Part shown: piece by piece, positions 7,647 to 48,614 of the stretch
How the letters are laid out: each line of letters opens with the position of its first letter
Position numbering within the stretch: the first letter of the stretch is position 1
Assembly (NCBI GenBank): GCA_017394405.1
Contig: JAFPYW010000020.1
Location: 1-50,932, forward strand
DNA from: Alphaproteobacteria bacterium
Lineage (GTDB): Bacteria; Pseudomonadota; Alphaproteobacteria; CAAHEQ01; UBA3637
Length of the DNA stretch: 50,932 bases
Direction of reading: 5' to 3'
Notes under the pieces: generated by a model
Seen by the model: the letters and a program-made list of their open reading frames with translations, nothing else
What the model was told of the DNA's origin: nothing
The model's database searches: none
Program-made: the position numbers and the translations under genes

Positions 7647-10600
7647 TTAAAAATACGACTTTGACCCTGTTGGCGGCTGGGAAACGGGTTGCACAAGACG
7701 ATCATCTATATTCGGTTCTTCGGCCGGATAGATGGTGCCAACAGAACTCCCGCCTGCAACGTTAGGACTGCCGCCTGTGGGTTGTCCTTTATTTTCGTTT
7801 GAAGAATTTTCTTCATTTCCCTCTTGCGGCTCACGTTTTTTCATCGGATTATATTCGCTAGGGGGTGTCCCAGCTTTTGTGCTGGGCTTACCATTTTCTG
7901 CCTCTAACTTCGCCTGATCATCCGACACGGCACGCAACCACAAATCTTGACCAGCAAACACTGTAATCCGCGTTCCAGATGGCACATACACGATATTCGG
8001 CACTTCTTTTGCTTCGTCTATCATCTGGTTGAACATTTCTTCCATACGATCGGAAATCATTTGACGCACATCATGACCCACTGAATTTCCGCTTGCCCCA
8101 CTCTTTTCATTGAGAGAAGTCATTTCTAGAGCAAAGATTTCAACTGCTGTGGATAACCATGGTGCCGTATATTTTTTGAACATCTGTTCATCCAAATACG
8201 CTGCCACACCGCCACGTCCCATCGCGTCACCAGAAACGGCCTCAATAGCAAAGGCAGCACCATCAGGTCTGATTAAACGTTCCCAAGAAATGCTCAATTT
8301 GACGGCCTTGCCCGAATCGCCATCGCCACCACTTTCAGCCTTACCAATCAAATGGCTGCCCGCTGGGATCAAAATATTACGTCCTTCTTCTGCATAAATA
8401 TGACGTTCCACCACCGCAGTCACAGGAACATCTGCATACCGAGAATCTATTGCACGTGTCAATACGGCTGGAATTGCCTTGTCTTTTAACAACACATGTG
8501 TCATATCCACAGGCCATGTAGAAATAGACTTGCCCGCCCCAATACTGGACCAATCCTTGTCCTGATGTTTCTTTGCTTTTGCCAAAATTTCAGGGCCCGG
8601 AATAATACCCGGCGTAGAGCTCATCTTTTCACGCATTTGTTTGCGCCGATTAAACATCAACTCTGTCATTATTTGCCGTTGTTCAGGCGTGATTGTCATC
8701 GGTTTTGGCATGACCGGTGGTTCGCGTTTTACTTCTATCGGCCCATCAATCTTGTCACTTTCAAAGAAAAACGGCCGACCATCTTCGCCCATATAACCCA
8801 CGATATTACCATTAGAATCAACCAAAGATCCATTTTCAACCGTAAATGGTTTGCCCTTCAAAATAATCTTCCGACCAGAACCAATCATGTTAGCACTGGA
8901 CAATCCACACTTGCGTAAATCTAATCCAATACCGCGGAACTGACCATATTGAGATCCATCAGGATTATACACCTTACCATCTGGGGTCACCGTCAATAAG
9001 ATATCGTTATTATCGTCACGCAAAGCCCCATCTGCCATCAAGGCCGCCATCTTTTCACCACCAGGCAATTTGCGCAATTCGCAACCAATCAATCTGGCAA
9101 CAGGTTTGTTTGCCATATCATACAAAATCACGAAGTTATCGCCATCTGGTTTAATTCTGGTGCCATCCGGCAAGACCATTTCATTCTTTTTATAATCCCA
9201 CTGGAATAAATCTTCTCCCGTTTCCGGATCTTTCACCCAACCTTCTGCCGTCACGGCATACTTCAATGTGCCATCTTTATTAAAGCCTAAACTGGTCGAT
9301 TTGGGGGCCATCCAACCTTTTCTTTCCCCATTTTCGTCAACCCATATAGCCGTTTTGCCACCGACGATCACACCACATTTACGTCCATCCATACAAATCA
9401 CGTTACCCATGGCGTCAACACGACCTTCCATCTTCTTACTTGTACCAAACACAGGACCACGTTCACGCACCCAACCAATTGTATTTCCGTTCGGATCTAC
9501 AACGCGTGTATCTGTTTGCCCACAACCAATGGTTACACCATTCGGATCCACCACCGTAGAATCAGGCAGCGTACGGCCAACAAACACAGATGTCCGACTG
9601 AATTGTTCGCTGGTCACCGGTCCATACACAACTGTATGACCTAAAACCTTCCCTTGGGCATTTGTGGCATACAACGTCGGTTGAATACGGCCAACGATAT
9701 TTCCTTGACCATTGACCACCTCACCATTATACGTTGTTTGGCCGACAATCGAGCAAGAATCTGTCGTCACCAAAGCATCCGGAATCACCCGACCAATATT
9801 CTTTGTTTCCTCCAATTCCGATTTCACTTCGTGCGGGAAAATGGCCCCTGCAGAATCTACAAAGCCCAAATCTTCTCCAGCAGAAGACATCATTCTGGCA
9901 TCACCATCCATTGTTCCCATTATTGTATCGTCATGAGAAATAGCTGGATAAAATGGCACAACAACACCTTCCAAAGGCCGTTCTTTACCCAAAACAGTAG
10001 CATCATCCAATAAGTTATAAATAATCTTGTCTGAGGAATCAATAATATCGCCATGAACCGTTGTCCGCCCTAACACATTTCGGCCATAACCGATTGGCAA
10101 CCCCTGCGCCACCAAGTGCCCGTTATAAGGCATTGTGTTATACACAGCCCGCTCATCCACACCAACAGACGATCCATCCGCCAAAACGCGGCCTTTGAAT
10201 CCCCTGTCAGATCCAACAATCGTTCCATCAGCCGCAACAACACCCACTTTGCGTGCATAGTCATCAATGATTGCACCGGTTTTGATTTGTCCCCCGATCC
10301 ATAATGTTTCCGGTGTCAACGCCGAATAAAATGGTGTTTTAACACCCAACACCTTACCAGCAAAATCAACAACCTGACCTTTGGCATCTAATTGGCCGAC
10401 CACAGCGCCCACGCGGTCAATAATGGTCGCCGGTGGTGTCACAGATCCGGAAATAACTCCAGCATTTTTATACAATACACCCATACCGGATACATTTCCT
10501 TGAACACGCCCACCCAACCATAAAGCACCCGTCATCAACTCAGTGCCCGCCTGACTTAAATTGATTTGTGACATCAACCCCATCGGAACAACAGCTCCGG

Positions 10601-13600
10601 TCAATTTCTTATCAGCATCCATCACATAATCATTCATCATGGCGGTACCAACTTGCTTTGTGCTGTTGTCGCGATACACGGTTCCATCCAAATTTAACCC
10701 ACCGACTTCACCATCATCTCGCAAGTTACGCACATATAAAGAACCTGTCCGCAAACGACCATTTAGGGCCCCATTTTCCATTGTGTAATCCGGCGCCAAT
10801 GCCACACCTAAATTCCGACCACTAACAGCCATAACGGCACCCGATTCCGTCACAATACCGCTTTGACGAATATCTTCGTGCATAGAGGGCGTTCCCAATG
10901 GCACATAGCCACCGACAATTGCATTATTTTCGCCCAACACACGATTATCCAAACTGACACGACCAACAACTTCCGTGCTATTCATAATACGACCATCAAT
11001 GGCCGTCCAGCCCAACATTTGTCCAGCGCCACCGACAGCAATACCTTCACGCAATACCCGACCAACGGAAGACAGATCATTATTCCATACATATCCTTCG
11101 GCACCGACCACAAAGTCCGTCAGCCCGTTTGCACCGTAAACAGCACCATCTGCAGAAACACGTCCGATATACGCTCCTGAACGATCCACCACTGTTCCTT
11201 TATGAATCACCGAACCGATTACATAACCATCGGCATCAAACACCAATCCGTTTTGACCCAAACGACCAATATCTTTTCCTTCGGCATCAACCACTTCGCC
11301 ACGGAAAGTAACCCAACCCAACAATTCATGAGCCGTACTCATCACCAAACCGATCGGCTCCGCAACACCACCCAAACGACCTTCTGTTGTTAAAACTGTT
11401 CCAAACGGTGACACAACCCCCAAATAATTGCCGGCTTTATCATATGCCGCTAATTGATAAGACATTGTATCCGTTTTACTGGTTGCCCTTGGAACAATCG
11501 TTCCAGACATACCCTCGCCAGACACAACTACAGACATCGGCATCCACACACGACCAATCACACGATTATCTGGATTCACAACCAAACCATTACCCAAAAC
11601 AGATCCAATACGGGTTCCTTTTGACATAACATCCCCATTGGCATTTGCCCAACCAACCTGAGTTCCCATCGCGGATAACACCACGCCTGTCGGAACAGCC
11701 GCACCAATCAAGACATTGTTCGTACTATACAACGCGCCATCAGACATCACCTTTCCAACGACTTGACCTGTTTCATCCACAACCTGTCCATCCAAACTCA
11801 ACATACCGACGAATTCACCATTCAATCCAACAAATGTTGTATTTTGTGGAATCAAAGAACCCAAAACTTGATTTCCAGCCATATTCAAAACTGTTAAATC
11901 TGGCATCACGCGCCCCAATTCATCTCCGTTGGCATTTAACGCTTCACCCAATAAACGATTATAGGTACCCAAAACAGCACCAGTTACTGAAACAATTACC
12001 CCATTAGGCGGCATAAAACCAATCATGTGGCCCTGTTTATCGGAAGCCCATCCGTTAAACGCCACTGAGCCAACTTCTTCATTACGTTCATTGAAACATT
12101 TGCCAGACATCGCCATCAATCCAGACGGCAAACCATTATCACCCAATACAACGCCCTTTTCCAAATTCATTGCATCTTGTAACAAGCCGCTGGGATCCAC
12201 ACAATCAATCACTTTTCCTTCGCGATCAATCACACGACCATCATAGCGAATATAACCCTTCACGCTGCCATCTGGAGAAATTGCCACACCAACCGGTGTA
12301 ATAGCCCCTATTTCTACGCCATTGGCTTTGACAGCACGCTTTTGCATATTCACGCAACCAACTGACATTCCCTCTTTATTCACAACCTGACCGGTCAAGG
12401 AAATCAGGCCCATTAAACGACACCCTTCAGCCATTACTGTTCCCCGTGGCACCACCACACCAATCACTTTGTTTTTGTTATTCAAAACATATCCATCAGC
12501 CCGCACAACGCCCGTGGGTTGAACATCTTGGGACATAACTTGACCATCTGGATAAACCGATCCTAACACATTGCAAGCATTCCCCACGACTTTTCCTTTT
12601 TGCAAAACTCCCCCGATAGTTTTCTTGCCAGTTGTCACCATACCATCTGGACCCGCAAAACCAATCATTGTTTCTTTGTTAGAAACACCCTTTCCCTCAG
12701 AATTGATAAAGCCAACGATAACTCCTTTAACATCCGCGATCAAACCTTGACGCACAACGGCCCCCAATTCATTCAACTTGCCATCAACAACCGTGCCATC
12801 CGGCATAACACGACCGACAATTTGACCATAATTATCTTTCACTTGTCCATTTAACGCCACAACACCATACGATGTGCCATTTGTTCCAACCGCCACACCT
12901 TGTGGCACAATACGACCCAACAATGTACCATTGGAATCTGTCACAAAACCATTTTGTTGCAAATGTCCCACGACTTTATTGTCGCCATTGATAATATCAC
13001 CCGTTGGTAAAATAGCACCCAACAAATTACCCGACAAATCTAATGTATAACCCCAATCACGAACAGTACCAATTTCTGAGCCAGTACTATCCACAACAGA
13101 TCCATCAACACGTGGATACCCAATTGTATCGCCGTGATTATCTATGACTTTAATTGAATTATTTTCAATCAAAAACTTACCAATAACAGTTCCTTGGGCA
13201 TTTATAACAGATGTCACCGGTAACGCAGCACCCAATACATTCAACTCTGTATCAACCAATGTGTCATCACCCAACAAACGGCCCAATGTAACACCATCTT
13301 TTTCCACCGTTCTGTATTCTGTGACTTCTCCCAAGTATTCGTTTTTCAAACTTAAAGCAATCCGTTTTGGTTCCACGACCACGCCCGGAACGATATTACC
13401 TTTTTCGTCACGCAACAATTCACCATCAACGGTTTCACCATCTTTCAGATCACGAGTTTCTCCATTGGCCAACATTACTTGCCGACGATGTTTTGTACCC
13501 TTTTCCTTTTCTACCTCACAACAAACACATTCTTTAGAGTCTGTAGAACTCCCCTTTAATTGAATTTGGGTGCGTTCATCCCTCAACACACGAGGATTAT

Positions 13601-14105
13601 CTTCACGCCAAACAATGGTTAAAGTATTTTGAATTGTACCAACAGTTATTGGCTTCCATGTTACTTTCAACAAACATTCATCATTTTCGTTTAATTGTGT
13701 TTTTTCCATACAAGGACCGCCCAACATAAATCCATTTTCCGGATTTTCTGCCAGATATTTTTGTAAGAAGACAATTGGCGCATTTTTAGCACGTAAGACC
13801 AAAACGGCTTCACCCAAACCACCTAACACAACTTGATCCATACTGACTTCTGATGGTGTAACCAACAATTCAGCGCCCCCCACACCGAAAGAAGGCAAAC
13901 GAGAATCTTTTCCACTTCCATCATCAACGGTGGATGCCAACGAAAAATCATCCACTGGGCGGATTTGTTGATTGTTATTTTTCTTTTGACGAACAGAACA
14001 TAAAACCAACAGGAACAGAATAAAAACAATCAAACCCAACACAGACAGAATCCATGTCGTACGGCGTTTTGATTGCTCTGATAAACTTTCCCGACTTTCT
14101 GCCAT
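7647..14105 (-). CDS. virB10: giant VirB10-like T4SS protein (2152 aa)
   Basis: Single uninterrupted ORF. It has an N-terminal TM anchor (TTWILSVLGLIVFILFLLVLCSV). The C-terminal ~200 aa (VLLKDKAIPAVLTRAIDS..PVTAVVERHIY..GRNILIPAGSHLIGKA..ISWERLIRPDG..GVAAYLDEQMFKKY..YVPSGTRITVFAGQDLWL) show the TrbI/VirB10 barrel-domain pattern. Position is between virB9 and virB11. Confidence 0.85.
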   Translation of the reverse strand: MAESRESLSEQSKRRTTWILSVLGLIVFILFLLVLCSVRQKKNNNQQIRPVDDFSLASTVDDGSGKDSRLPSFGVGGAELLVTPSEVSMDQVVLGGLGEAVLVLRAKNAPIVFLQKYLAENPENGFMLGGPCMEKTQLNENDECLLKVTWKPITVGTIQNTLTIVWREDNPRVLRDERTQIQLKGSSTDSKECVCCEVEKEKGTKHRRQVMLANGETRDLKDGETVDGELLRDEKGNIVPGVVVEPKRIALSLKNEYLGEVTEYRTVEKDGVTLGRLLGDDTLVDTELNVLGAALPVTSVINAQGTVIGKFLIENNSIKVIDNHGDTIGYPRVDGSVVDSTGSEIGTVRDWGYTLDLSGNLLGAILPTGDIINGDNKVVGHLQQNGFVTDSNGTLLGRIVPQGVAVGTNGTSYGVVALNGQVKDNYGQIVGRVMPDGTVVDGKLNELGAVVRQGLIADVKGVIVGFINSEGKGVSNKETMIGFAGPDGMVTTGKKTIGGVLQKGKVVGNACNVLGSVYPDGQVMSQDVQPTGVVRADGYVLNNKNKVIGVVVPRGTVMAEGCRLMGLISLTGQVVNKEGMSVGCVNMQKRAVKANGVEIGAITPVGVAISPDGSVKGYIRYDGRVIDREGKVIDCVDPSGLLQDAMNLEKGVVLGDNGLPSGLMAMSGKCFNERNEEVGSVAFNGWASDKQGHMIGFMPPNGVIVSVTGAVLGTYNRLLGEALNANGDELGRVMPDLTVLNMAGNQVLGSLIPQNTTFVGLNGEFVGMLSLDGQVVDETGQVVGKVMSDGALYSTNNVLIGAAVPTGVVLSAMGTQVGWANANGDVMSKGTRIGSVLGNGLVVNPDNRVIGRVWMPMSVVVSGEGMSGTIVPRATSKTDTMSYQLAAYDKAGNYLGVVSPFGTVLTTEGRLGGVAEPIGLVMSTAHELLGWVTFRGEVVDAEGKDIGRLGQNGLVFDADGYVIGSVIHKGTVVDRSGAYIGRVSADGAVYGANGLTDFVVGAEGYVWNNDLSSVGRVLREGIAVGGAGQMLGWTAIDGRIMNSTEVVGRVSLDNRVLGENNAIVGGYVPLGTPSMHEDIRQSGIVTESGAVMAVSGRNLGVALAPDYTMENGALNGRLRTGSLYVRNLRDDGEVGGLNLDGTVYRDNSTKQVGTAMMNDYVMDADKKLTGAVVPMGLMSQINLSQAGTELMTGALWLGGRVQGNVSGMGVLYKNAGVISGSVTPPATIIDRVGAVVGQLDAKGQVVDFAGKVLGVKTPFYSALTPETLWIGGQIKTGAIIDDYARKVGVVAADGTIVGSDRGFKGRVLADGSSVGVDERAVYNTMPYNGHLVAQGLPIGYGRNVLGRTTVHGDIIDSSDKIIYNLLDDATVLGKERPLEGVVVPFYPAISHDDTIMGTMDGDARMMSSAGEDLGFVDSAGAIFPHEVKSELEETKNIGRVIPDALVTTDSCSIVGQTTYNGEVVNGQGNIVGRIQPTLYATNAQGKVLGHTVVYGPVTSEQFSRTSVFVGRTLPDSTVVDPNGVTIGCGQTDTRVVDPNGNTIGWVRERGPVFGTSKKMEGRVDAMGNVICMDGRKCGVIVGGKTAIWVDENGERKGWMAPKSTSLGFNKDGTLKYAVTAEGWVKDPETGEDLFQWDYKKNEMVLPDGTRIKPDGDNFVILYDMANKPVARLIGCELRKLPGGEKMAALMADGALRDDNNDILLTVTPDGKVYNPDGSQYGQFRGIGLDLRKCGLSSANMIGSGRKIILKGKPFTVENGSLVDSNGNIVGYMGEDGRPFFFESDKIDGPIEVKREPPVMPKPMTITPEQRQIMTELMFNRRKQMREKMSSTPGIIPGPEILAKAKKHQDKDWSSIGAGKSISTWPVDMTHVLLKDKAIPAVLTRAIDSRYADVPVTAVVERHIYAEEGRNILIPAGSHLIGKAESGGDGDSGKAVKLSISWERLIRPDGAAFAIEAVSGDAMGRGGVAAYLDEQMFKKYTAPWLSTAVEIFALEMTSLNEKSGASGNSVGHDVRQMISDRMEEMFNQMIDEAKEVPNIVYVPSGTRITVFAGQDLWLRAVSDDQAKLEAENGKPSTKAGTPPSEYNPMKKREPQEGNEENSSNENKGQPTGGSPNVAGGSSVGTIYPAEEPNIDDRLVQPVSQPPTGSKSYF
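7932..8525 (-). other. TrbI/VirB10 C-terminal barrel domain within the giant ORF (aa ~1861-2058)
   Basis: The motif run listed for the parent CDS. The remaining 94 aa (7650..7931) form a P/G/N/E/S-rich low-complexity tail. Confidence 0.75.
8766..13478 (-). repeat. protein-level degenerate tandem repeat array, period ~17 aa (aa ~210-1780 of VirB10)
   Basis: Consecutive units read directly from the translation: GQVKDNYGQIVGRVMPD / GTVVDGKLNELGAVVRQ / GLIADVKGVIVGFINSE / GKGVSNKETMIGFAGPD / GKVVGNACNVLGSVYPD / GQVMSQDVQPTGVVRAD / GYVLNNKNKVIGVVVPR. Consensus is G-x-V-x-[DN]-x-x-G-x-x-[IVL]-G-x-[VI]-x-x-[DG]. Boundaries and copy number (roughly 80-90) are by-eye estimates. The DNA copies are too diverged to be exact repeats. 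Confidence 0.75.
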
Positions 14106-14114
14106 AGCACCCTA

Positions 14115-15815
14115 CTATTTAATTCTGACGACCGAGCACGAATATCCGCGTTTTCCCAATTTCCGGCAAAGCGTATCTGCCGTCTCAGCATCTTTCACAG
14201 TTCCCGCACGCAAACGGAACAAATCCATTGTTTCACCATTTGCCGATGTATCAACAGAATAGTACGGATCATATCCGGCCAACAAGTCCCCATTTGCACG
14301 ATATACTTGCTCCCACAATTTTTCCAACTCGGCAATTTCACCGGCTGTACCAAATTCTAGAGCAATATTTTCTTTTGCAGCAACCGGCAACACAACACCT
14401 TTGTCGGCTTGAATAGCATCAATTTCAGCGCGAGCCGCACTGGATTGTCTGACTGATGCAGGAATCGCCGCCATTGGTTGCCATGCAGCTGTACCGCCAC
14501 AACGATTAGCCCCTAATGTGTCATCACAATATGGGTTGATACCACCCGTTGCATACGGATTATATCCACCAGTTTCTGTCGCATAAGCCCCATTTCCAGC
14601 ACCTAATTGAGCCGGTGCATACGGATTATTACCATGCAACACAGAACCTCCTCTGTATGTCACTTCCGGATTCGGCATATCTGGCGCACGCACAGGTAAT
14701 TGAGTGTTATAAGCATAGGGTTGAGAATTAAACGCGCTGTAATCCGTATATTCCAAACCAGCGGCAGGATCACGACGCATCTTGATGCAAATAACTTTGC
14801 GCCCATTTCTCAAAACCAAATCACCAATGGCTTCTACTACAATCAATCGGCTGTTTGGACCACGCGTTCTAAAGCCCACCGGCACCTCTGAATCTTGTTG
14901 CAATAAACTGACCACTGGACGTTGTGTCATTGTCAATGCTTTCGGGCCCAAATCAATGTAGGTGAAAATGTTATCACGCCACACATTATCCGGCGCAATA
15001 TCAACATCATCCGGATTTGGCAAGAACATATCCAAGTCAAATTTCAATGCTTCTGGATCCATTGGAACCGTATTTTTCCATTCATTGGCTGTATTGATTT
15101 GCAACGCACTTGTTGTCGAACGTGCAGTTGTTGCACCCATCATATTCAAAGACGGCATAGAGGCCATTGTGGAAACCCCATCACCCTCGCGCAACTGGCC
15201 ACCATCAGCCACAGGCGTCCAACGTGGCCCCACCAAAACATCTACCACCGATTGAGTAATTTTGTCTGTGTTGAAGGTTTCACTGCGCAAATAGAAAACG
15301 TATCTATTTCCGGAACGACCAAACATCACCATGTTACTATCCACACCCACATAGGTTGGATCTGCATACAACAACATTGAGTTTGGCGCCACAATATCCC
15401 CACCGAAAGATTCCGGCGCACCAATATGAACTTTTTCAATCAATTCCCATGACGGCAAATTGATCAAAGTCATCATTCCTTCTCGAACACGCACAGGCAA
15501 CACAGTATCTGGCGTCCAGTTATATTTGGAATACCCTGGCTTTGTTTGTCCGGAACCCATGTGAGCCAATGGATTATTCCACGCTTTTTGTTGCATTCCC
15601 AATCCTTGTCCCATTGAACGCAACCAATCCATATCCACTTCATCATATTGGCCGGATGCGTTAGCAAGAGCGTCAGCTAATTGTGCCGCTTGTGGATCGG
15701 TAGGAACATTTGTTTGTGCAAAAAGAGGGGAAACAAAAACACCCAAAACACCCGTCAATACGGGTAAAACTCCCTTTAATAAAAACTTTTTACTCACCGG
15801 TTCCTCCTTTTTCAT
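14115..15815 (-). CDS. virB9: VirB9-like T4SS outer-membrane core protein with C-terminal SPOR domain (566 aa)
   Basis: Signal peptide ..LTGVLGVFVSPLFA. VirB9/CagX-type N-domain (YNWTPDTVLPVRVREGMMTLINLP..RYVFYLRSE) and C-domain (IFTYIDLGPKALTMTQRPVVSLLQQDSEVPVGFRTRGPNSRLIVVEAIGDLVLRNGRKVICIKM). This is followed by a ~130-aa Y/N/P/G-rich linker and the SPOR-like end. Confidence 0.8.
   Translation of the reverse strand: MKKEEPVSKKFLLKGVLPVLTGVLGVFVSPLFAQTNVPTDPQAAQLADALANASGQYDEVDMDWLRSMGQGLGMQQKAWNNPLAHMGSGQTKPGYSKYNWTPDTVLPVRVREGMMTLINLPSWELIEKVHIGAPESFGGDIVAPNSMLLYADPTYVGVDSNMVMFGRSGNRYVFYLRSETFNTDKITQSVVDVLVGPRWTPVADGGQLREGDGVSTMASMPSLNMMGATTARSTTSALQINTANEWKNTVPMDPEALKFDLDMFLPNPDDVDIAPDNVWRDNIFTYIDLGPKALTMTQRPVVSLLQQDSEVPVGFRTRGPNSRLIVVEAIGDLVLRNGRKVICIKMRRDPAAGLEYTDYSAFNSQPYAYNTQLPVRAPDMPNPEVTYRGGSVLHGNNPYAPAQLGAGNGAYATETGGYNPYATGGINPYCDDTLGANRCGGTAAWQPMAAIPASVRQSSAARAEIDAIQADKGVVLPVAAKENIALEFGTAGEIAELEKLWEQVYRANGDLLAGYDPYYSVDTSANGETMDLFRLRAGTVKDAETADTLCRKLGKRGYSCSVVRIK
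14118..14369 (-). other. SPOR-type peptidoglycan-binding domain at the VirB9 C-terminus (aa ~483-566)
   Basis: NIALEFGTAGEIAELEKLWEQVYRANGDLLAGYDPYYSVDTSANGETMDLFRLRAGTVKDAETADTLCRKLGKRGYSCSVVRIK follows the alphaproteobacterial SPOR pattern (..A...W..l....gdlL.g..p......G...yRLR.G......A..lC..L...G..C.vv). Confidence 0.65.
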
Positions 15816-15936: not shown

Positions 15937-16650
15937 TTATGGTCTTATTTCTTCAGGTTCCGAAGGCTCCAAACCAAAACTTAAAACCTTAAATCCAAGT
16001 GGGTTTTGCAAGATTTGAGAACGGCTGCGCGGTTCTCCATCTGGACGGAATGCAACTTTAGCACGAGCAATCCACCAAGTTTCTTCCGGCACAGACGAAA
16101 CGCGGTTCATTTGACTAATTTTAATTTTGGCTTCATAGACATCCCCATCATTTGGACCCGTTGCAGTCTGAGTTTTATTCACGCGCAAAATTTTAACATC
16201 CCGTGTCATATTGTCTTCTTGGGCCATTTTTCCCAATCTTACCAATTCTTGTTTTTTGAATTCGTCATACACCGTATTAGAGCTCATTTGTTCCACGATA
16301 CCACCGGGCCCCCAACGTGTTTCTTGTTCTTGCCAGTTGGATCCGATACCATATCGCGCCAACAAATATTGACGTACATAAGACCCTTTTAATGTATCGG
16401 AATCTAATACTTCCTGGGCAGGACGCACCACATCAATAATTTGCTCATTTTTATCTTTTGTTGAAATATAAAACGGCTGAACACGCAACACAGGAGTCAC
16501 ATTAGCCAAGGCAATCAGCAAAACAATATCACAAATAATGGCCAAAACTACCATCACCACAAAAGCCCGAGACATCCATAAATAACGCTCCTCCTGCAAA
16601 ACTTCGCGGGAAGAAACAGAATGTTTCTGTGTGTTTTCAGATGGTGCCAT
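15937..16650 (-). CDS. virB8: VirB8 family T4SS protein (copy b, 237 aa)
   Basis: Bitopic layout: cytoplasmic N-terminus, TM (AFVVMVVLAIICDIVLLIALANV), then an NTF2-like VirB8 region (LRVQPFYI...YVRQYLLARYGIGSNWQEQETRWGPGGIVEQMSSNTVYDEF). GAGGAGG RBS. Confidence 0.8.
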   Translation of the reverse strand: MAPSENTQKHSVSSREVLQEERYLWMSRAFVVMVVLAIICDIVLLIALANVTPVLRVQPFYISTKDKNEQIIDVVRPAQEVLDSDTLKGSYVRQYLLARYGIGSNWQEQETRWGPGGIVEQMSSNTVYDEFKKQELVRLGKMAQEDNMTRDVKILRVNKTQTATGPNDGDVYEAKIKISQMNRVSSVPEETWWIARAKVAFRPDGEPRSRSQILQNPLGFKVLSFGLEPSEPEEIRP

Positions 16651-16664
16651 AGCCCCTCCTCAAC

Positions 16665-16841
16665 TTACGAAAACCACTCAGGCAATTCCGGTGCTTTTTT
16701 CAATTCCAAACAGGCACAAGGAGATTTTTTCAACTCCGAATATTCAGGACCAATGCCCACCGGCATTTTTTCATAAACCGAGTTACATGCGGCCAAAATC
16801 AAGCCACAAAGCCCTAAAAACAAACAAATATACGTTTTCAT
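16665..16841 (-). CDS. virB7: small lipoprotein in the VirB7 position (RvhB7-like)
   Basis: MKTYICLFLGLCGLILAAC has a lipobox, and the mature peptide is ~40 aa. It sits between two virB8 copies, as in rvh islands. Assignment is by size, lipobox and position only. I prefer the ATG at 16841 over the GTG at 16847. Confidence 0.55.
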   Translation of the reverse strand: MKTYICLFLGLCGLILAACNSVYEKMPVGIGPEYSELKKSPCACLELKKAPELPEWFS

Positions 16842-16911: not shown

Positions 16912-17523
16912 TTATTTTGTCACATTTGATTCATCCACACTGGTTATAATAAAGCCATAAGGATTGGAAAGAACGCTACCCATCAAACGTCTGGCAGGCA
17001 TATAACCAAAGTGCAGCACAACGCTTCGTGTCGATTTGCGCCATGTTCCACGTCCCGTGGCTTCATATAAGTCAAAAATAACGGCATAATAATTTTCTTT
17101 ACGTGTTGCACTAATAATATCAACAACCTTTTGTTGGGAATTTTCATCCGCCGAAGTGTAAATATCTTCCGAAGGAGCAAATTCATCATATACTTTTGGG
17201 GCAGACAAAAAGGCCACAATGCCATTTGGCCCCCAACGACGGGTCATTTCTACAGAATCCGAAATAAAAGAATAACGCATTGTCACATACAAACGAACCA
17301 GTGCATCATCTACTGTTTGACGTTGTAACGCGCTCACTGGAATAACCGTAATTAAATCGCGAAACTCACCAGAATCTAAACGAAAAACTTGTGCAAGCAC
17401 ATTGACCTGTAAAACCGCCTGAAACAAAGTAACAACAATAAAAAATGTCACAATCCAAACGGCCCAACATACCACCATCAGTAATCGTGTCAAATGCCAT
17501 GCTGTCGTTTTGTGTTCAGTCAT
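16912..17523 (-). CDS. virB8: VirB8 family T4SS protein (copy a, 203 aa)
   Basis: TM (LLMVVCWAVWIVTFFIVVTLF), then VRLYVTMRYSFISDSVEMTRRWGPNGIVAFLSAPKVYDEF, which parallels copy b (R-W-G-P-x-G-I-V..Y-D-E-F). Confidence 0.8.
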   Translation of the reverse strand: MTEHKTTAWHLTRLLMVVCWAVWIVTFFIVVTLFQAVLQVNVLAQVFRLDSGEFRDLITVIPVSALQRQTVDDALVRLYVTMRYSFISDSVEMTRRWGPNGIVAFLSAPKVYDEFAPSEDIYTSADENSQQKVVDIISATRKENYYAVIFDLYEATGRGTWRKSTRSVVLHFGYMPARRLMGSVLSNPYGFIITSVDESNVTK

Positions 17524-34149: not shown

Positions 34150-35055
34150 ATGCGTCCAGAAGTGGCAAATTTTTTAGATGTTCAAGTGGCAGAATGTGGT
34201 GCTGCCACAAACACTATTGCCGCTTACACAAAAGATTTGGAATTATTGGATGAATTTTTACAAAAAAAAGGCGTTGATTTAATTCACGCCAAAAACCAAG
34301 ATTTACGCGATTATTTATCGTGGATTACCAATCAAGGATATGCTATTAAAACACAAAGTCGCCGAATGTCCAGCATGCGCGATTTTTACCGCTTTTTGTT
34401 TTCTGAAAACATTATTAAAAAGAATCCAACCGATTATTTGGACAGCCCCAAAACACGCAAATCTTTGCCAAAATATTTAAGCGAAGAAGAAGTAACTGCT
34501 TTGATTCAAAACGCCCCCAAAATAAATCGGCGCATGCAACCATTGTTAGAACTTTTATACGCATCCGGCATGCGTGTCAGTGAATTGGTCGGTCTGCCTG
34601 TCGAAGCCGCGACACGCGAAAAAAAACGTATTTATATTGTTGGAAAAGGGTCCAAAGAACGCATCGTTCCATTGAATGACAAGGCCTGTGAAGCATTAGA
34701 AAAATGGATAACCGTGCGCCAAATTTTGAATCCTCGTGAAGCAAAAAGCAAATGGTTGTTCCCGGCAAAATCTGCCTCAGGGCATTTAACACGCGGTGGC
34801 TTTTTTAAGGAATTAAAAAAATTGGCCGGACTCATCGGGTTGGATCAAAGCAAAGTATCGCCACACGTTTTTCGCCATTCTTTCGCCTCACATTTAATCG
34901 CTCATGATGCCGATTTAAGATCTGTGCAAAAGTTGTTGGGACATTCTGATATTGCCACAACCGAAATTTATACACACATCTTGCCGGACAGATTAAAAAA
35001 GGTCATTGAAAAATCTCATCCTTTAGCGTATAATGATAGCGAGGATCAATCATGA
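34150..35055 (+). CDS. xerD: site-specific tyrosine recombinase XerD
   Basis: NTIAAYTKDLELLDEFL, SRRMSSMRDFYRFL, LPKYLSEEEV, LLYASGMRVSELVGL, HVFRHSFASHL and LLGHSDIATTEIYTH (R-H-R-Y catalytic set). Confidence 0.85.
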   Translation: MRPEVANFLDVQVAECGAATNTIAAYTKDLELLDEFLQKKGVDLIHAKNQDLRDYLSWITNQGYAIKTQSRRMSSMRDFYRFLFSENIIKKNPTDYLDSPKTRKSLPKYLSEEEVTALIQNAPKINRRMQPLLELLYASGMRVSELVGLPVEAATREKKRIYIVGKGSKERIVPLNDKACEALEKWITVRQILNPREAKSKWLFPAKSASGHLTRGGFFKELKKLAGLIGLDQSKVSPHVFRHSFASHLIAHDADLRSVQKLLGHSDIATTEIYTHILPDRLKKVIEKSHPLAYNDSEDQS

Positions 35056-37694
35056 AAATTGTAGATAAGTACATTTTCCGGCAAACATTGGTGGGGTTTT
35101 TAACCCTACTGATCAGCCTAACCATTTTAATTTGGCTGACACAATCTTTGCGTATGATTGACATGATTGTCACCAAAGGCGTATCCGTCGGTGTCTTTTT
35201 GAAAATGACCTTATTGGTGTTGCCAAATTTTTTACAAATCTTATCTCCGCTAGCTTTATTTGGCGTTGCTTTATTTGTTTTTATTCGGATGCAAGCCGAT
35301 AAAGAATTGATTGTCCTAAAGGCTGTCGGAATGAACAGCCGACAATTGATTCGCCCCTTGTTTTTGTTGGGCGTTGTGTTAGTCGCGTTCGGATATATGC
35401 TGACATTATGGGTTATTCCGAAATCATACGCTCATATGCGACAAATGCGCTGGACCATTCAAAATGATTTATCCCATTTATTGTTGCAGGAAGGACAATT
35501 CAACTCTTTCAAAAATGGCACAACTTTGTATATCAAGGAACGTGATAGCGAAGGAAAAGCAAAAGGTATTTTGGCGTATGAAATTAAAAAAGACAAACGT
35601 TCCGTGTTGATTGCCGATGAAGGAAGTATGATTCAAACGCCAGAAGGAATTAGTTTAACTTTTAACAATGGCACACGCCAAGAATTCACTCCTTCCACCC
35701 ACCAATTTTCTGTTTTGAAATTCCAAAAACACACAATGTTATTTGCCGACAAACCCGGGAAATCATCCCGCAAATTGGATCAACGGGAAATGTCGTTGGG
35801 CAAATTGTTAAAAGCAAAAAAAGACGATATCAAAGACGCGCCGACATATCGGAAATATAAAGTAGAAGCATTCAAACGTTTGACTCAACCGCTGTATAAT
35901 TTATTGTTTTTGTGGTTAGCGGCCTTTGGTGTTTTAAGCGGATTTTATAATCGACGCGGACAATCCAAACAAATCAATGCTGTTGTGATAGCCGCTTTAT
36001 TGATTCAATCTATGGCCTTGGCGTTTGAAAATATTGCCGCCAGAAATTTGTGGGGCTTGACGCTGATGGGGCTAAATCTATTTGTTCCGCTGATGATTTT
36101 GTATGTTGTTTTGTTCAAAGAAAAGAAAATCGGTTGGATCCATTTGGTGGCTTTGTTCGGTGTTTTGAGTGTCGTCAGTCCAGCGGGAGCTGTTCCAAAA
36201 ATCAACACAGATAATTTTAATGCAAAAGCACCTATTGATTTTGAAGCCGATGATATGGATTACAACTTGAAAACGGGTATTTTGACTGCAAAAGGAAATG
36301 TCGTTGTAAAGCAAAACGGCATTGTCATGAAAACCGATAAAATTTTGTACAACAAAGAACAACAAAAAGTTGATATTCCCAATAAAGTGCATATGACTTT
36401 GCCAGACGGGACAAAATCTTCTGTTCAAAGTATGCAATTATTTCCACAAAAATCTGAGGCCGAAGCACAAACATTTGCGGGACAATTCGCAGATGGCAGC
36501 AATTTATCCGCCAAAGATATTTTGAGCACACAAGAAGGTGATATTATCATTATGCATAATGCCTCCTATACACCATGCGATTTATGCGAAGGAAAATCTG
36601 CATTGTGGCAAATATCTGCCCAACAAATTACTCAAGATTTTACTGATCATACTTTGTCGTACAAACACATGTCATTGGATATCAAAGATATACCTGTTTT
36701 GTATTTCCCGTATTTTCAAATGCCCGACTTTACCATCAAACGCAAAACTGGTTTTTTGAACCCCAGTTTCAGACATAATCACGAAATGGGTTTTTCTGTG
36801 GAAACGCCGTTTTTTGTGAATTTAGCCGACAATCAAAATTTATTGTTCACCCCCATTATTTCCGTGGAACATGTTCCGTTGGGCATCATAGATTATAACG
36901 CCCGGTTCACACGTGGTGTCGTCAATTTACAATTGAGTGGAACCCAAGATGATCACAGCACAAATGAAGGCCATATAAAAGGTGATTTCAGGTATGATGT
37001 GACAGATCACATTCGCTTGACTGGCCAATATTTCCGAACAACAAACGATACCTATTTTCGCCGGTACGATATTCCAAACATTGACGATTCAGAATCATTC
37101 TTGCAATCTCATTTGACGGGCGAATACTTTGGCACTCGATTTTATACAAAATTAAAAACATGGCATTTTCAAAGTTTACTTGATGGTGTTAGTAGCAGAT
37201 CTATTCCGATATTATTACCAACATTAAATATGGATTATGTGACCAAGACATTTGGTAATACAAACATCAGTGCTTTTACCAACATCAACGGGGCCATGTA
37301 TAACACACGTCAGCATTTCAAATCCAATCGTATTTCTTTGACTCAGGGTTTCCAAATGCCCTATATTGCCCCCTTTGGCTTGGTGACACAAACACGCGCC
37401 AGCGTTCGTTTAGACGGTTATGCATTAGATTCTGGCAACAGTACGATGGTTTCCAAACATAATAACGACACCTATAACAAGGGGCGTTTTTATCCTGTTG
37501 CTTCCACGAAATTCAGTTATCCTTTGGTGGCACAAACAGAAAAAACAATGCAAATTTTGGAACCGATTGCCATGTTGGTTGTTTCTCCTAACACCAAAAA
37601 TGCTGACGACATCCCAAACATTGATAGTACTGTTTTTGATTTTGATGACATCAATTTGTTTTCCGAAAACCGGTTTGCCGGATATGAAGTGTAG
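35052..37694 (+). CDS. LptF/LptG-family LPS export permease (aa 1-~358) fused in-frame to LptD (signal peptide, OstA N-domain and most of the barrel)
   Basis: KYIFRQTLVGFLTLLISL...LPNFLQILSPLALF...KELIVLKAVGMN is the YjgP/YjgQ permease pattern. With no intervening stop, it continues as FKEKKIGWIHLVALFGVLSVVSPAGA (signal-peptide-like), then IDFEADDMDYNLKTGILTAKGNVVVKQNGIVMKTDKILY (OstA/LptD N-domain), then LptD barrel sequence. The ORF ends at the TAG at 37692-37694, inside the conserved NRF-G-x-[DE]-R-V-E block. Confidence 0.7.
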   Translation: MKIVDKYIFRQTLVGFLTLLISLTILIWLTQSLRMIDMIVTKGVSVGVFLKMTLLVLPNFLQILSPLALFGVALFVFIRMQADKELIVLKAVGMNSRQLIRPLFLLGVVLVAFGYMLTLWVIPKSYAHMRQMRWTIQNDLSHLLLQEGQFNSFKNGTTLYIKERDSEGKAKGILAYEIKKDKRSVLIADEGSMIQTPEGISLTFNNGTRQEFTPSTHQFSVLKFQKHTMLFADKPGKSSRKLDQREMSLGKLLKAKKDDIKDAPTYRKYKVEAFKRLTQPLYNLLFLWLAAFGVLSGFYNRRGQSKQINAVVIAALLIQSMALAFENIAARNLWGLTLMGLNLFVPLMILYVVLFKEKKIGWIHLVALFGVLSVVSPAGAVPKINTDNFNAKAPIDFEADDMDYNLKTGILTAKGNVVVKQNGIVMKTDKILYNKEQQKVDIPNKVHMTLPDGTKSSVQSMQLFPQKSEAEAQTFAGQFADGSNLSAKDILSTQEGDIIIMHNASYTPCDLCEGKSALWQISAQQITQDFTDHTLSYKHMSLDIKDIPVLYFPYFQMPDFTIKRKTGFLNPSFRHNHEMGFSVETPFFVNLADNQNLLFTPIISVEHVPLGIIDYNARFTRGVVNLQLSGTQDDHSTNEGHIKGDFRYDVTDHIRLTGQYFRTTNDTYFRRYDIPNIDDSESFLQSHLTGEYFGTRFYTKLKTWHFQSLLDGVSSRSIPILLPTLNMDYVTKTFGNTNISAFTNINGAMYNTRQHFKSNRISLTQGFQMPYIAPFGLVTQTRASVRLDGYALDSGNSTMVSKHNNDTYNKGRFYPVASTKFSYPLVAQTEKTMQILEPIAMLVVSPNTKNADDIPNIDSTVFDFDDINLFSENRFAGYEV

Positions 37695-47225: not shown

Positions 47226-48614
47226 ATGGAAAACGTTAATGCTATTCAAGGTCAATGGGCCGAAATTTGCACACAACTGACACAAACGCTCAGTGACCGA
47301 TTTGCAATGCGATTTCTCAGCAAAATCATACCAGATAAAATTGAAAATAATTGTGTCAATTTGATGGTGTCCAGTCCCTGTGTTCGTGAAGTTATTAAAC
47401 AAAATTATATTGAATCCATCTTATCTTTATGGAAAACCAAAAATCCGGGCATCTCTGCCATTAATTTGGAATTGGCCGAACCTGAACAATTGCCGGTTAT
47501 CAAACAAGAAATAGTTCAACCCGTGCCGGCCCCTTCTGTTTCTTTACCCGAATCAGACAATACCGATTCTCAAACGGATGAAATTCCTTGTTATTTAGAC
47601 AAAACGCACACATTTGATACATTTGTTGTCGGCAAATCCAATCAATTTGCCTGTGCTGCCGCCAAACAAATCGCAGAAGCAGACGTACCACCCTTTAATC
47701 CGCTCTATTTCCATGCAGGATCTGGTTTGGGAAAAACACACCTGTTGCACGCAATTGCTTGGCGTATGAAAGAACGTCATCCAGAAAAAACAATTTTATA
47801 TTTGTCTTCTGAACAATTCTTCCAACGCTGCATGCACGATTTGGGCACAACCAACAAGGATGCCTTTATCACCATGGTGCGCTCTGTAGATGTGTTGCTG
47901 ATTGATGATATTCAATTTATTTTAGGAAAACCATGGACACAAGAAGTCTTTTTCCACACCTTTAATAATTTAATTGCGCAAAATAAAACCGTGATTTTGG
48001 CCGCCGATTCGGCACCATCCGAATTACACGGCATCAGCGACAAATTGCGCACACGCATTTGCCAAGGATTAGTGGTCGATATCACGCCAGCCGAAGAAGA
48101 ATTGCGTTTGGGCATTTTACAAGGCAAGGCCAAACAAATCGGTGTTGAAATTCCACAGGATGTTTTGTCCTTCTTGGCCAAAAACATTACCTCAAACGTT
48201 CGTGAATTGGAAGGGGCCTTAAAACGAATCGCTGCTCATTCAACTTTATTAAACACGCCTATCAATATGGAAACGACTCGGTTGGTGTTGAAAGATATTT
48301 TACACACCTATGATCGTCCCGTGAAGGTGCCAGAAATTCAACAATTTGTTGCTGCGTATTATCATATTTCATTGAATGATTTGAAATCAACACGCCGTGA
48401 TCGCGCCATCGCACGCCCACGCCAAATTGCCATGTATTTGACAAAAGCTCTCACCTCATTGGCTTTGCCGGATATTGCTTTGTGCTTTAACCGCGACCAT
48501 ACAACAATTATTCACGCGGTTCGCACCATTGAAGGTTTGATGCAACAAGATAAAAAATTATCGGAACAAATTGCCGATATCACCGCCAAACTGAAAGCCG
48601 GAATGAATGCCTAA
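47226..48614 (+). CDS. dnaA: chromosomal replication initiator DnaA
   Basis: TFDTFVVGKSNQFACAAA, Walker A AGSGLGKTHLLHAI, LLIDDIQF, SNVRELEGAL, and the domain IV helix-turn-helix region (IARPRQIAMYLTKALTSLALPDIALCFNRDHTTIIHAV). Confidence 0.95.
   Translation: MENVNAIQGQWAEICTQLTQTLSDRFAMRFLSKIIPDKIENNCVNLMVSSPCVREVIKQNYIESILSLWKTKNPGISAINLELAEPEQLPVIKQEIVQPVPAPSVSLPESDNTDSQTDEIPCYLDKTHTFDTFVVGKSNQFACAAAKQIAEADVPPFNPLYFHAGSGLGKTHLLHAIAWRMKERHPEKTILYLSSEQFFQRCMHDLGTTNKDAFITMVRSVDVLLIDDIQFILGKPWTQEVFFHTFNNLIAQNKTVILAADSAPSELHGISDKLRTRICQGLVVDITPAEEELRLGILQGKAKQIGVEIPQDVLSFLAKNITSNVRELEGALKRIAAHSTLLNTPINMETTRLVLKDILHTYDRPVKVPEIQQFVAAYYHISLNDLKSTRRDRAIARPRQIAMYLTKALTSLALPDIALCFNRDHTTIIHAVRTIEGLMQQDKKLSEQIADITAKLKAGMNA

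Follow-up and report, generated by a model that had tools for sequence, protein, structure and literature searches.

VirB10 proteins are envelope-spanning subunits of type IV secretion systems (T4SSs) and are thought to relay an ATPase-driven conformational change to the outer-membrane gate. In this study, we analysed a stretch of 50,932 nucleotides (nt), referred to below as the window (contig JAFPYW010000020.1, positions 1 to 50,932, assembly GCA_017394405.1), from an uncultured Alphaproteobacteria bacterium, in which a single open reading frame (ORF) between homologues of virB9 and virB11 encodes a VirB10-like protein of 2152 amino acids (aa). The protein comprises an N-terminal membrane anchor, an immunoglobulin (Ig)-like domain, a very long array of 17-residue repeats and a C-terminal TrbI/VirB10 barrel. 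Its gene, domains, repeats and relatives were examined, focusing on the structure and the probable role of the array.

The giant virB10 gene and its domains

The features of the locus are listed in Table 1. The product of the giant virB10 ORF is identical to the database protein P0001. The upstream virB9 ORF stops 9 nt ahead of the giant virB10 ATG, and the junction behind the gene reads TAA-GGAGGATGTA-ATG, with a gap of 10 nt before virB11. The location of the gene between virB9 and virB11, which is one of the features that define a VirB10, is conserved in the relatives described below. An AlphaFold2 run with a 69-sequence family alignment was carried out in two overlapping segments, aa 1-1200 (mean predicted local distance difference test (pLDDT) 84.8, predicted TM-score (pTM) 0.75) and aa 953-2152 (mean pLDDT 79.5, pTM 0.68). 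Hydropathy analysis found only one hydrophobic segment (aa ~18-37), where the Kyte-Doolittle mean over 19 aa peaks at 3.09 (aa 18-36), and a transmembrane (TM) helix was modelled at aa 8-36, followed by a disordered linker (aa 38-74). The protein therefore has the bitopic inner-membrane anchoring through one N-terminal TM helix that is typical of VirB10.

Table 1. Features of the giant virB10 gene, its product and the adjoining genes in the window
Feature	Position in window	Strand	Basis or remark
Giant virB10 ORF, 2152 aa + stop	7647..14105	minus	ATG start, 0 internal stops
Cytoplasmic tail and single TM helix, aa 1-37	13995..14105	minus	hydropathy, AlphaFold2
ASH/PapD-like Ig beta-sandwich, aa 75-190 (strands 79-188)	13536..13883	minus	AlphaFold2 pLDDT ~90, Foldseek
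17-residue beta-hairpin repeat array, aa 209-1780	8766..13481	minus	72 recognisable units, ~89 slots
Lys/Pro-rich linker, aa 1781-1871	8493..8765	minus	K 11%, P 11%; pLDDT low
TrbI/VirB10 C-terminal barrel, aa 1872-2057	7935..8492	minus	Pfam, PDB sequence, Foldseek
Two-helix 'antenna' hairpin, aa 1974-2000 and 2009-2034	8004..8186	minus	AlphaFold2, pLDDT ~50-66
Disordered Pro/Ser/Glu/Gly/Asn-rich tail, aa 2058-2152 (~95 residues)	7650..7934	minus	composition, pLDDT <50
VirB11 ATPase, 328 aa	6653..7636	minus	TIGR02788 E 8.5e-44
VirB9 homologue, 566 aa	14115..15815	minus	Pfam CagX E 4.5e-15, TIGR02781
SPOR domain of VirB9, aa 514-564	14124-14276	minus	Pfam E 8.6e-5
VirB8	15937-16650	minus	Pfam VirB8
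VirB7-like 58-aa lipoprotein, lipobox LAAC	16665-16841	minus	small ORF
Second VirB8	16912-17523	minus	Pfam VirB8
Six co-oriented ORFs, 383/414/288/279/308/946 aa	17540..25384	minus	N-terminal signal-peptide-like segment each

The C-terminal barrel was identified by sequence as well as by fold. The Pfam profile TrbI (PF03743) matched over positions 2-188 of 188 with 104.3 bits (cut-off 35; E 9.1e-30), and the sequence matches in the PDB were ComB10 (2e-15), Xanthomonas VirB10, CagY, TraF and TrwE. In the Foldseek search the modelled barrel matched TrwE, VirB10, CagY, TraF, ComB10, DotG and models of the F-plasmid outer-membrane core complex (probability 1.0, TMt 0.46-0.62). The two-helix antenna within the barrel, another feature of VirB10, was modelled at residues 1022-1048 and 1057-1082 of the second segment (offset 952) with modest local confidence; by analogy with solved VirB10 structures, this hairpin would span the outer membrane. 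One helix was also modelled in the Lys/Pro-rich linker ahead of the barrel (aa ~1807-1830, model residues 855-878). Behind the barrel, the disordered tail is poorly conserved overall (20% identity), yet it ends in a near-invariant R-x-V-x-P-V...F-COOH, with F2152, P2128, R2136 and P2140 nearly invariant among 18 homologues and the terminal Phe present in at least 90%.

Between the anchor and the array lies an Ig-like beta-sandwich, which resembles the PapD-like domains of HYDIN and CEP192 (Foldseek probability 1.0, TMt 0.57-0.75). The Pfam ASH profile matched it below the cut-off (E 0.001), and a Foldseek search of a viral library returned matches to the Ig domain only. Two family-invariant cysteines, Cys132 and Cys144, lie inside this domain, and two more, Cys193 and Cys196, just past it in a low-confidence linker (aa 191-202). 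A first-pass annotation of the same DNA, made from the letters alone, had placed the ORF at its correct coordinates with the anchor, the barrel and both intergenic gaps, all of which were confirmed here; it is to be corrected in that the gene lies on the minus strand, and it had overlooked the Ig-like domain.

The array of 17-residue hairpins

The periodicity of the array is evident from the autocorrelation of Gly, which peaks at lags 17, 34, 51, 68 and 85 (0.40, 0.33, 0.25, 0.19 and 0.13). Because hmmsearch with a 15-17-residue unit profile under-counted the repeats (40 overlapping or partial matches), a position-specific scoring matrix (PSSM) and dynamic-programming tiling were used instead. 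The PSSM scan placed 57 array units above the 99.5th percentile of shuffled sequence, with a 58th match at aa 1911, within the TrbI domain. The tiling recognised 72 units from aa 265 to aa 1776, 43 of the 71 steps between them being exactly 17 residues, and its longer gaps could hold about 15 further degenerate units, giving ~87-89 slots in total. The consensus of the unit is x-V-V-[DN]-x-x-G-x-[LVI]-[ILV]-G-x-V-x-P-D-G; among the 58 PSSM matches, 33 carry D or N at position 4 and 26 carry G at position 7. Phasing is exact across many consecutive units without linkers, including a run of about 12 at aa 319-522. The earlier proposal of a unit of about 17 aa, present in 80-90 copies and folded as a beta-hairpin, is thus upheld, and the consensus is close to the motif given there; what had been missed is that the hairpin is already represented in Pfam.

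The Pfam family concerned is PF21785 (Bflower_2, '5-fold beta-flower'), which matched the whole protein with 188.6 bits (E 2.9e-56; cut-off 38). The beta-flower families (PF21784, PF21785 and PF21786; clan CL0395) were built from AlphaFold models (Durairaj et al. 2023, PMC10584680), and the described flowers are single closed shallow barrels of ~100 residues with 4, 5 or 6 hairpins (8, 10 or 12 strands), the 'petals' being beta-hairpins with a [DNEQ]xxG tip, for which there is no solved structure or function on record (PMC10584680). The array shares with these families the profile match above the cut-off and a hairpin unit with a [DN]xxG tip; it differs in consisting of ~89 hairpins without domain-register breaks, within a secretion subunit, in place of a single ~100-residue barrel. 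When the array was cut into overlapping 170-aa fragments, 10 of 10 matched Bflower_2, starting at arbitrary profile positions, which indicates that the match reflects the hairpin and not discrete five-hairpin domains. No super-period of 4, 5 or 6 units was found in the profile similarity of the slots at lags 1-24, and mutual information between unit positions, computed for lags 1-9, recovered only the trivial contact of position 17 with position 1 of the next unit, against a background that rose as fewer slots were pooled. The arbitrary match starts, the unbroken phasing and the lack of a super-period together argue against discrete closed flowers but do not amount to proof. A sequence search of the PDB with the array gave no match.

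In the AlphaFold2 models, strands of 3 and 5 residues alternate without a break over the whole array (aa 209 to ~1780), mostly with pLDDT above 85, and helix is limited to occasional 3-residue turns. For a segment of 1200 residues the pTM is high, which speaks against beads on a string and makes one continuous rigid beta-structure of ~1570 residues the reading favoured by the models.

Four cysteines of the array were noted among the 69 family members, Cys562 and Cys635 being invariant and Cys511 and Cys584 present in at least 90%. The spacings along the series 511/562/584/635 are 51, 22 and 51 residues; 51 residues correspond to three units, and the cysteines 51 apart share a unit position. 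Disulfides between the two members of such a pair may staple hairpin i to hairpin i+3. The Cys-Cys spacings (51, 73 and 22) were also considered as evidence on the number of hairpins per turn, a use that was rejected because they derive from four orthologous cysteines and are not independent.

Relatives, known VirB10 homologues and a split-gene variant

Relatives were sought by an alignment-based scan with one genome per GTDB species, since a query with the single protein gave none. The scan found 107 relatives, of which 80 were kept, and a set of 81 related loci was used for all locus counts. By their titles, nearly all of these 80 of 107 are metagenome-assembled genomes (MAGs) of uncultured Alphaproteobacteria, a few of them evidently mis-binned, and their sources include the rumen, abomasum and colon of ruminants, the faeces of horse and rabbit, and human cohorts, with Hadza and Nepali samples among them. 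An affinity with Rickettsiales or Holosporales, which had been suggested initially, was not borne out: the relatives are gut and rumen MAGs named 'Alphaproteobacteria bacterium', none of them assigned to Rickettsiales. Of the 81 related loci, 78 have the ORF without interruption, at a length of 2048-2666 aa (median 2211). A protein search gave 86 homologue clusters, about 68 of which are 2126-2609 aa long with the same domain set and 24-58% identity, and the 17-residue period was detected in all 86 family members. NCBI labels such members 'TrbI/VirB10 family protein' (e.g. MBO7483877.1, 2140 aa).

The array is 37-47% identical to its homologues, compared with 56% for the TrbI barrel and 20% for the C-terminal tail. 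Its hairpins align one-to-one across species; indels are mostly of 1-2 aa, changes of whole units are rare, and dozens of Gly are shared by all of 69 sequences, the identity among which falls as low as 24-26%. At the DNA level, no tandem repeats were found in the array by TRF, the sole hit in the ORF being weak (12-nt unit, 1.9 copies), and the strongest direct repeats in the ORF are 20-62 nt long with 60-85% identity. Non-repetitive DNA removes the concern of assembly collapse or expansion and also leaves no substrate for recombination of the kind known from CagY. Since the repeats are positionally orthologous and their DNA is non-repetitive, the evidence points to a fixed structural element, neither variable nor misassembled, and the conservation seen in these alignments is that of an ancient structure held to set dimensions and not that of an antigenically variable region.

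The same data bear on the question of whether the ORF could have arisen by misassembly or chimera formation, or be a pseudogene in decay. Long repeat-coding genes are in general prone to misassembly, and no support specific to this case was found. Against such an origin stand the lack of DNA-level repeats, the invariance of Gly over the entire length of the protein and the fact that many studies have independently assembled genes of this architecture and length; we regard its probability as negligible. Misassembly and pseudogene decay were therefore rejected on the non-repetitive DNA and the uninterrupted ORF of the related loci, and the giant virB10 ORF is confirmed as a genuine gene.

For a survey of size, the last 372 residues were searched against 1.84 billion representative proteins, which yielded 3889 homologues. 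All matches with a 17-residue period belong to the giant family, either as proteins of 1400-2400 aa or as fragments without the N-terminal anchor. The next-nearest proteins, exemplified by a Microvirga TrbI/VirB10 of 590 aa, are 500-630 aa long and have 8-12% Pro and a TM helix, without a 17-residue period. Full-length giants contain 2.8-5.2% Pro overall, and within the array Pro does not rank with the eight most frequent residues; in the window protein only aa 1781-1871 are Pro-rich (11%), and the extended Pro-rich linker of VirB10 is thus missing. These figures agree with the initial estimate of a four- to five-fold expansion and with the proposal that the array takes the place of the Pro-rich linker.

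Gene position, domain content and fold all support the giant protein as an orthologue of VirB10. It shows four of the five defining VirB10/TrbI features that could be tested; the remaining one, the Pro-rich linker, has been replaced. With canonical VirB10 (A. tumefaciens VirB10, TraF of pKM101, TrwE of R388 and Xanthomonas VirB10) it shares the cytoplasmic tail, the TM helix, the antenna barrel and the gene position (Foldseek probability 1.0, TMt 0.54-0.60); it differs in being about 4-5 times longer, in having the Ig-like domain and ~1570 hairpin residues where these proteins have a Pro-rich linker, and in the added tail of ~95 residues past the barrel.

Two large VirB10 homologues with repeats have already been described. 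CagY repeats are encoded by recombining DNA direct repeats. CagY of Helicobacter pylori, part of an expanded core complex whose VirB9 and VirB7 components are enlarged as well, is a protein of 1927 aa with a large repeat region N-terminal to the barrel (PMC9371333); the CagY repeats are alpha-helical modules according to the account of Delahay 2008 cited there. The giant VirB10 resembles CagY in its size, in having repeats ahead of the barrel, and in the sequence and fold of the barrel, but instead of alpha-helical, recombinogenic repeats it has beta-hairpins encoded by non-repetitive DNA in a number that is fixed across species. DotG/IcmE of Legionella is a protein of ~1000 aa with 10-aa repeats N-terminal to the barrel (bioRxiv 10.1101/2023.03.22.533729), and for these repeats, as for the unresolved CagY repeats, a role as periplasmic collar has been proposed (bioRxiv 10.1101/2023.03.22.533729; PMC9371333). 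The likeness to DotG lies in the repeats between anchor and barrel and in the barrel fold (TMt 0.61-0.62), whereas DotG has 10-residue repeats in variable number with a low-confidence model, as opposed to 17-residue repeats in fixed number with a high-confidence model, and belongs to a type IVB system, unlike the VirB-type system of the giant VirB10. The first-pass annotation had taken VirB10 proteins to be a few hundred residues long and the present architecture to be undescribed; since CagY and DotG are already expanded with repeats, the principle is not new, and only the beta-hairpin architecture is. A literature search for VirB10 with Bflower or beta-hairpin repeats, or for RF32 with type IV secretion, found no paper, and a broader one on VirB10 in MAGs of gut Alphaproteobacteria gave unrelated papers only.

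A split form of the gene was found in a sister lineage (L082:5884-14269; ENA ERZ15609927 NODE_274), in which a gene for 1371 aa lies directly ahead of a gene for 1422 aa, between virB9 and virB11 (proteins P0076, P0077, P0114, P0122 and P0144 belong to this observation). The 1371-aa half has a cytoplasmic tail and a TM helix, together with an ASH-like region and about 65 of the 17-residue hairpins (Gly autocorrelation 0.45 at lag 17), and it aligns by BLASTP with aa 80-1380 of the window protein (E 7e-79). The 1422-aa half comprises a Sec signal peptide, repeats and the TrbI barrel; it belongs to a class of proteins of 1400-1650 aa in which the Sec signal peptide at the start is cleavable (...SAFA/QEITAIDFNGDL) and precedes hairpins and barrel. 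As the inner-membrane half lacks an outer-membrane targeting domain, its hairpins must be periplasmic, and with one half membrane-anchored and the other Sec-exported the array as a whole is placed in the periplasm, a location that we infer from the topology and the split-gene variant together. As judged from the two genes, covalent continuity between the inner and the outer membrane is apparently dispensable in this lineage.

Role of the array and context of the virB module

We consider it probable, though well short of certain, that the protein is a functional VirB10 of a chromosomal, vertically inherited VirB-type T4SS, in which the array serves as a periplasmic scaffold, collar or cage. By analogy with DotG and CagY, a scaffold or collar is the most likely role of the array itself. 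In the proposed arrangement, the cytoplasmic tail and the one TM helix would be seated in the inner membrane, the TrbI barrel with its antenna would assemble with VirB9 and VirB7 into the outer-membrane core complex, and the ASH/PapD-like Ig domain and the ~89 hairpins would substitute for the extended Pro-rich linker. Core complexes of solved systems hold 13-18 copies of VirB10 (PMC9371333), and the arrays of as many copies would pack in the periplasm around the translocation channel. On this view, the repeat number determines how large the assembly is and would be kept constant for that reason.

Several points weigh against this reading. The 178 short strands are too many for a straight rod in a periplasm of 20-30 nm, so that the geometry is predicted to be compact or lateral. 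The packing of the arrays is a proposal, their shape may be that of stacked closed flowers, of an open superhelix or of another kind, and the scaffold role is argued by analogy with two proteins whose repeat regions are themselves unresolved. The giant virB10 is presumed to be expressed. No virB2, virB3, virB4, virB6 or virD4 was found in the 51-kb window, and a complete machine is likewise presumed.

Other roles for the array were weighed against the scaffold. The array might mainly bind glycans or peptidoglycan and, with the SPOR domain at the C-terminus of VirB9, tether the machine in the wall instead of serving as a protein-protein scaffold. Hairpin repeats of ~20 aa such as choline-binding repeats and CROPs do bind carbohydrates, and Foldseek returned a toxin A repeat fragment (2g7c); this match is weak and not significant (E 0.067), no sequence match to known wall-binding repeat families was obtained, some 89 units in each of ~14 copies go far beyond the needs of tethering, and strict conservation of the unit number fits architecture better, which makes wall binding as the main function rather unlikely. 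The array might also be displayed on the cell surface and reach target cells as a fibre or adhesin. Such a role has been proposed for the CagY repeats, which are reported to contact host receptors in references given in PMC9371333, and the protein is large and beta-rich, as many adhesins are. Both ends of the chain, however, are fixed, one in the inner membrane and the other in the outer-membrane barrel, so that a fibre would have to cross the outer membrane twice; moreover, the hairpins of the inner-membrane half of the split variant have no means of outer-membrane targeting, and the number and positions of the repeats are conserved without DNA repeats for recombination. We hold this role to be improbable.

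A third possibility is a closed shell of the Rhs/YD type that encloses a cargo. Local Foldseek similarity to Rhs cocoons, teneurins and TcB/TcC was found over 900-1400 columns (E 1e-9 to 1e-12), and some homologues carry a precomputed RHS_repeat match. The global fold differs, however, with TM-scores of 0.06-0.07 and a root-mean-square deviation of 28-39 Å; the window protein does not match the RHS_repeat Pfam family and is without YD motif, Rhs core, aspartyl-protease plug or toxin domain. A closed cocoon was accordingly rejected on the TM-score, and such a shell is very improbable. With regard to the three geometries that had been suggested at the outset, the split variant favours the periplasmic sheath or cage, and the surface fibre is disfavoured, although none of them is established.

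Within the preferred reading of a periplasmic scaffold, a more far-reaching form can be envisaged, which we consider possible but doubtful: about 14 arrays might form a hitherto unseen beta-structured periplasmic tube, sheath or cage of several megadaltons, representing a new class of T4SS, and in the split lineage the two halves might dock non-covalently, with the energy relay passing through a reversible hairpin-to-hairpin interface. The giant protein is in any case an extreme natural variant of VirB10, in which ~1700 structured periplasmic residues stand where a flexible linker is usual and whose size is nearly constant in more than 100 species, and its split version offers a natural test of whether the relay needs a continuous chain. 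It also provides the first context of a molecular machine and a cellular compartment for the beta-flower hairpin, which has been known only from AlphaFold models (PMC10584680). The carriers are understudied uncultured Alphaproteobacteria that are common in the rumen, in other animal guts and in human cohorts, and since a virB module was present in 81 of 81 related loci examined, the system is likely to be central to their interaction with other cells. The finding is thus of high interest for the structure of secretion systems and for the biology of gut Alphaproteobacteria, tempered by the precedents of CagY and DotG.

The virB8-virB7-like-virB8-virB9-virB10-virB11 module was recovered in 74-80 of the 81 related loci, the VirB8-VirB7-like-VirB8 arrangement in 74. 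The two VirB8 ORFs of the window match Pfam VirB8 with E values of 7.6e-14 and 1.6e-6. VirB9, at 566 aa, is about twice the usual size, and its SPOR domain suggests a cell-wall tether for the core complex. The rvh T4SS of Rickettsiales has chromosomal scattered genes with two VirB8 flanking a VirB7-like gene, and its RvhB10 is of ordinary size; its hallmarks also include several VirB6 paralogues, duplication of VirB8 and VirB9, and the order VirB10-VirB11-VirD4. The present module is similar to rvh in its duplicated VirB8 flanking a small VirB7-like lipoprotein gene and in its apparently scattered chromosomal T4SS genes; unlike rvh, the window has no polytopic VirB6-like ORF, and VirD4 is absent after VirB11.

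Six co-oriented ORFs lie upstream of the module, for which no Pfam match, even at relaxed threshold, and no NCBIfam match was obtained. They are syntenic in close relatives and diverge fast, and they may be accessory core components, parts of a pilus or adhesin, or substrates. Their interpretation as VirB6 paralogues was rejected, because they have only an N-terminal hydrophobic segment and no polytopic TM pattern. The flanking dUTPase-like, SH3, MscS and CarD genes are also syntenic in closer relatives. The presence of dnaA, lepA, recR, infC and yebC (47226-48614 (+) and whole window) places the T4SS module in the core chromosome, within ~35 kb of dnaA. Elsewhere in the window, a single ORF of 880 aa (35052-37694 (+)) combines an LptF/LptG permease (aa 6-355) with LptD_N (aa 398-531) and LptD (aa 649-878). 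The LptD match covers its profile only up to position 246 of 384, which makes a frameshift or an assembly error possible; as it stands, the ORF looks like an inner-membrane permease fused to an outer-membrane LPS insertase.

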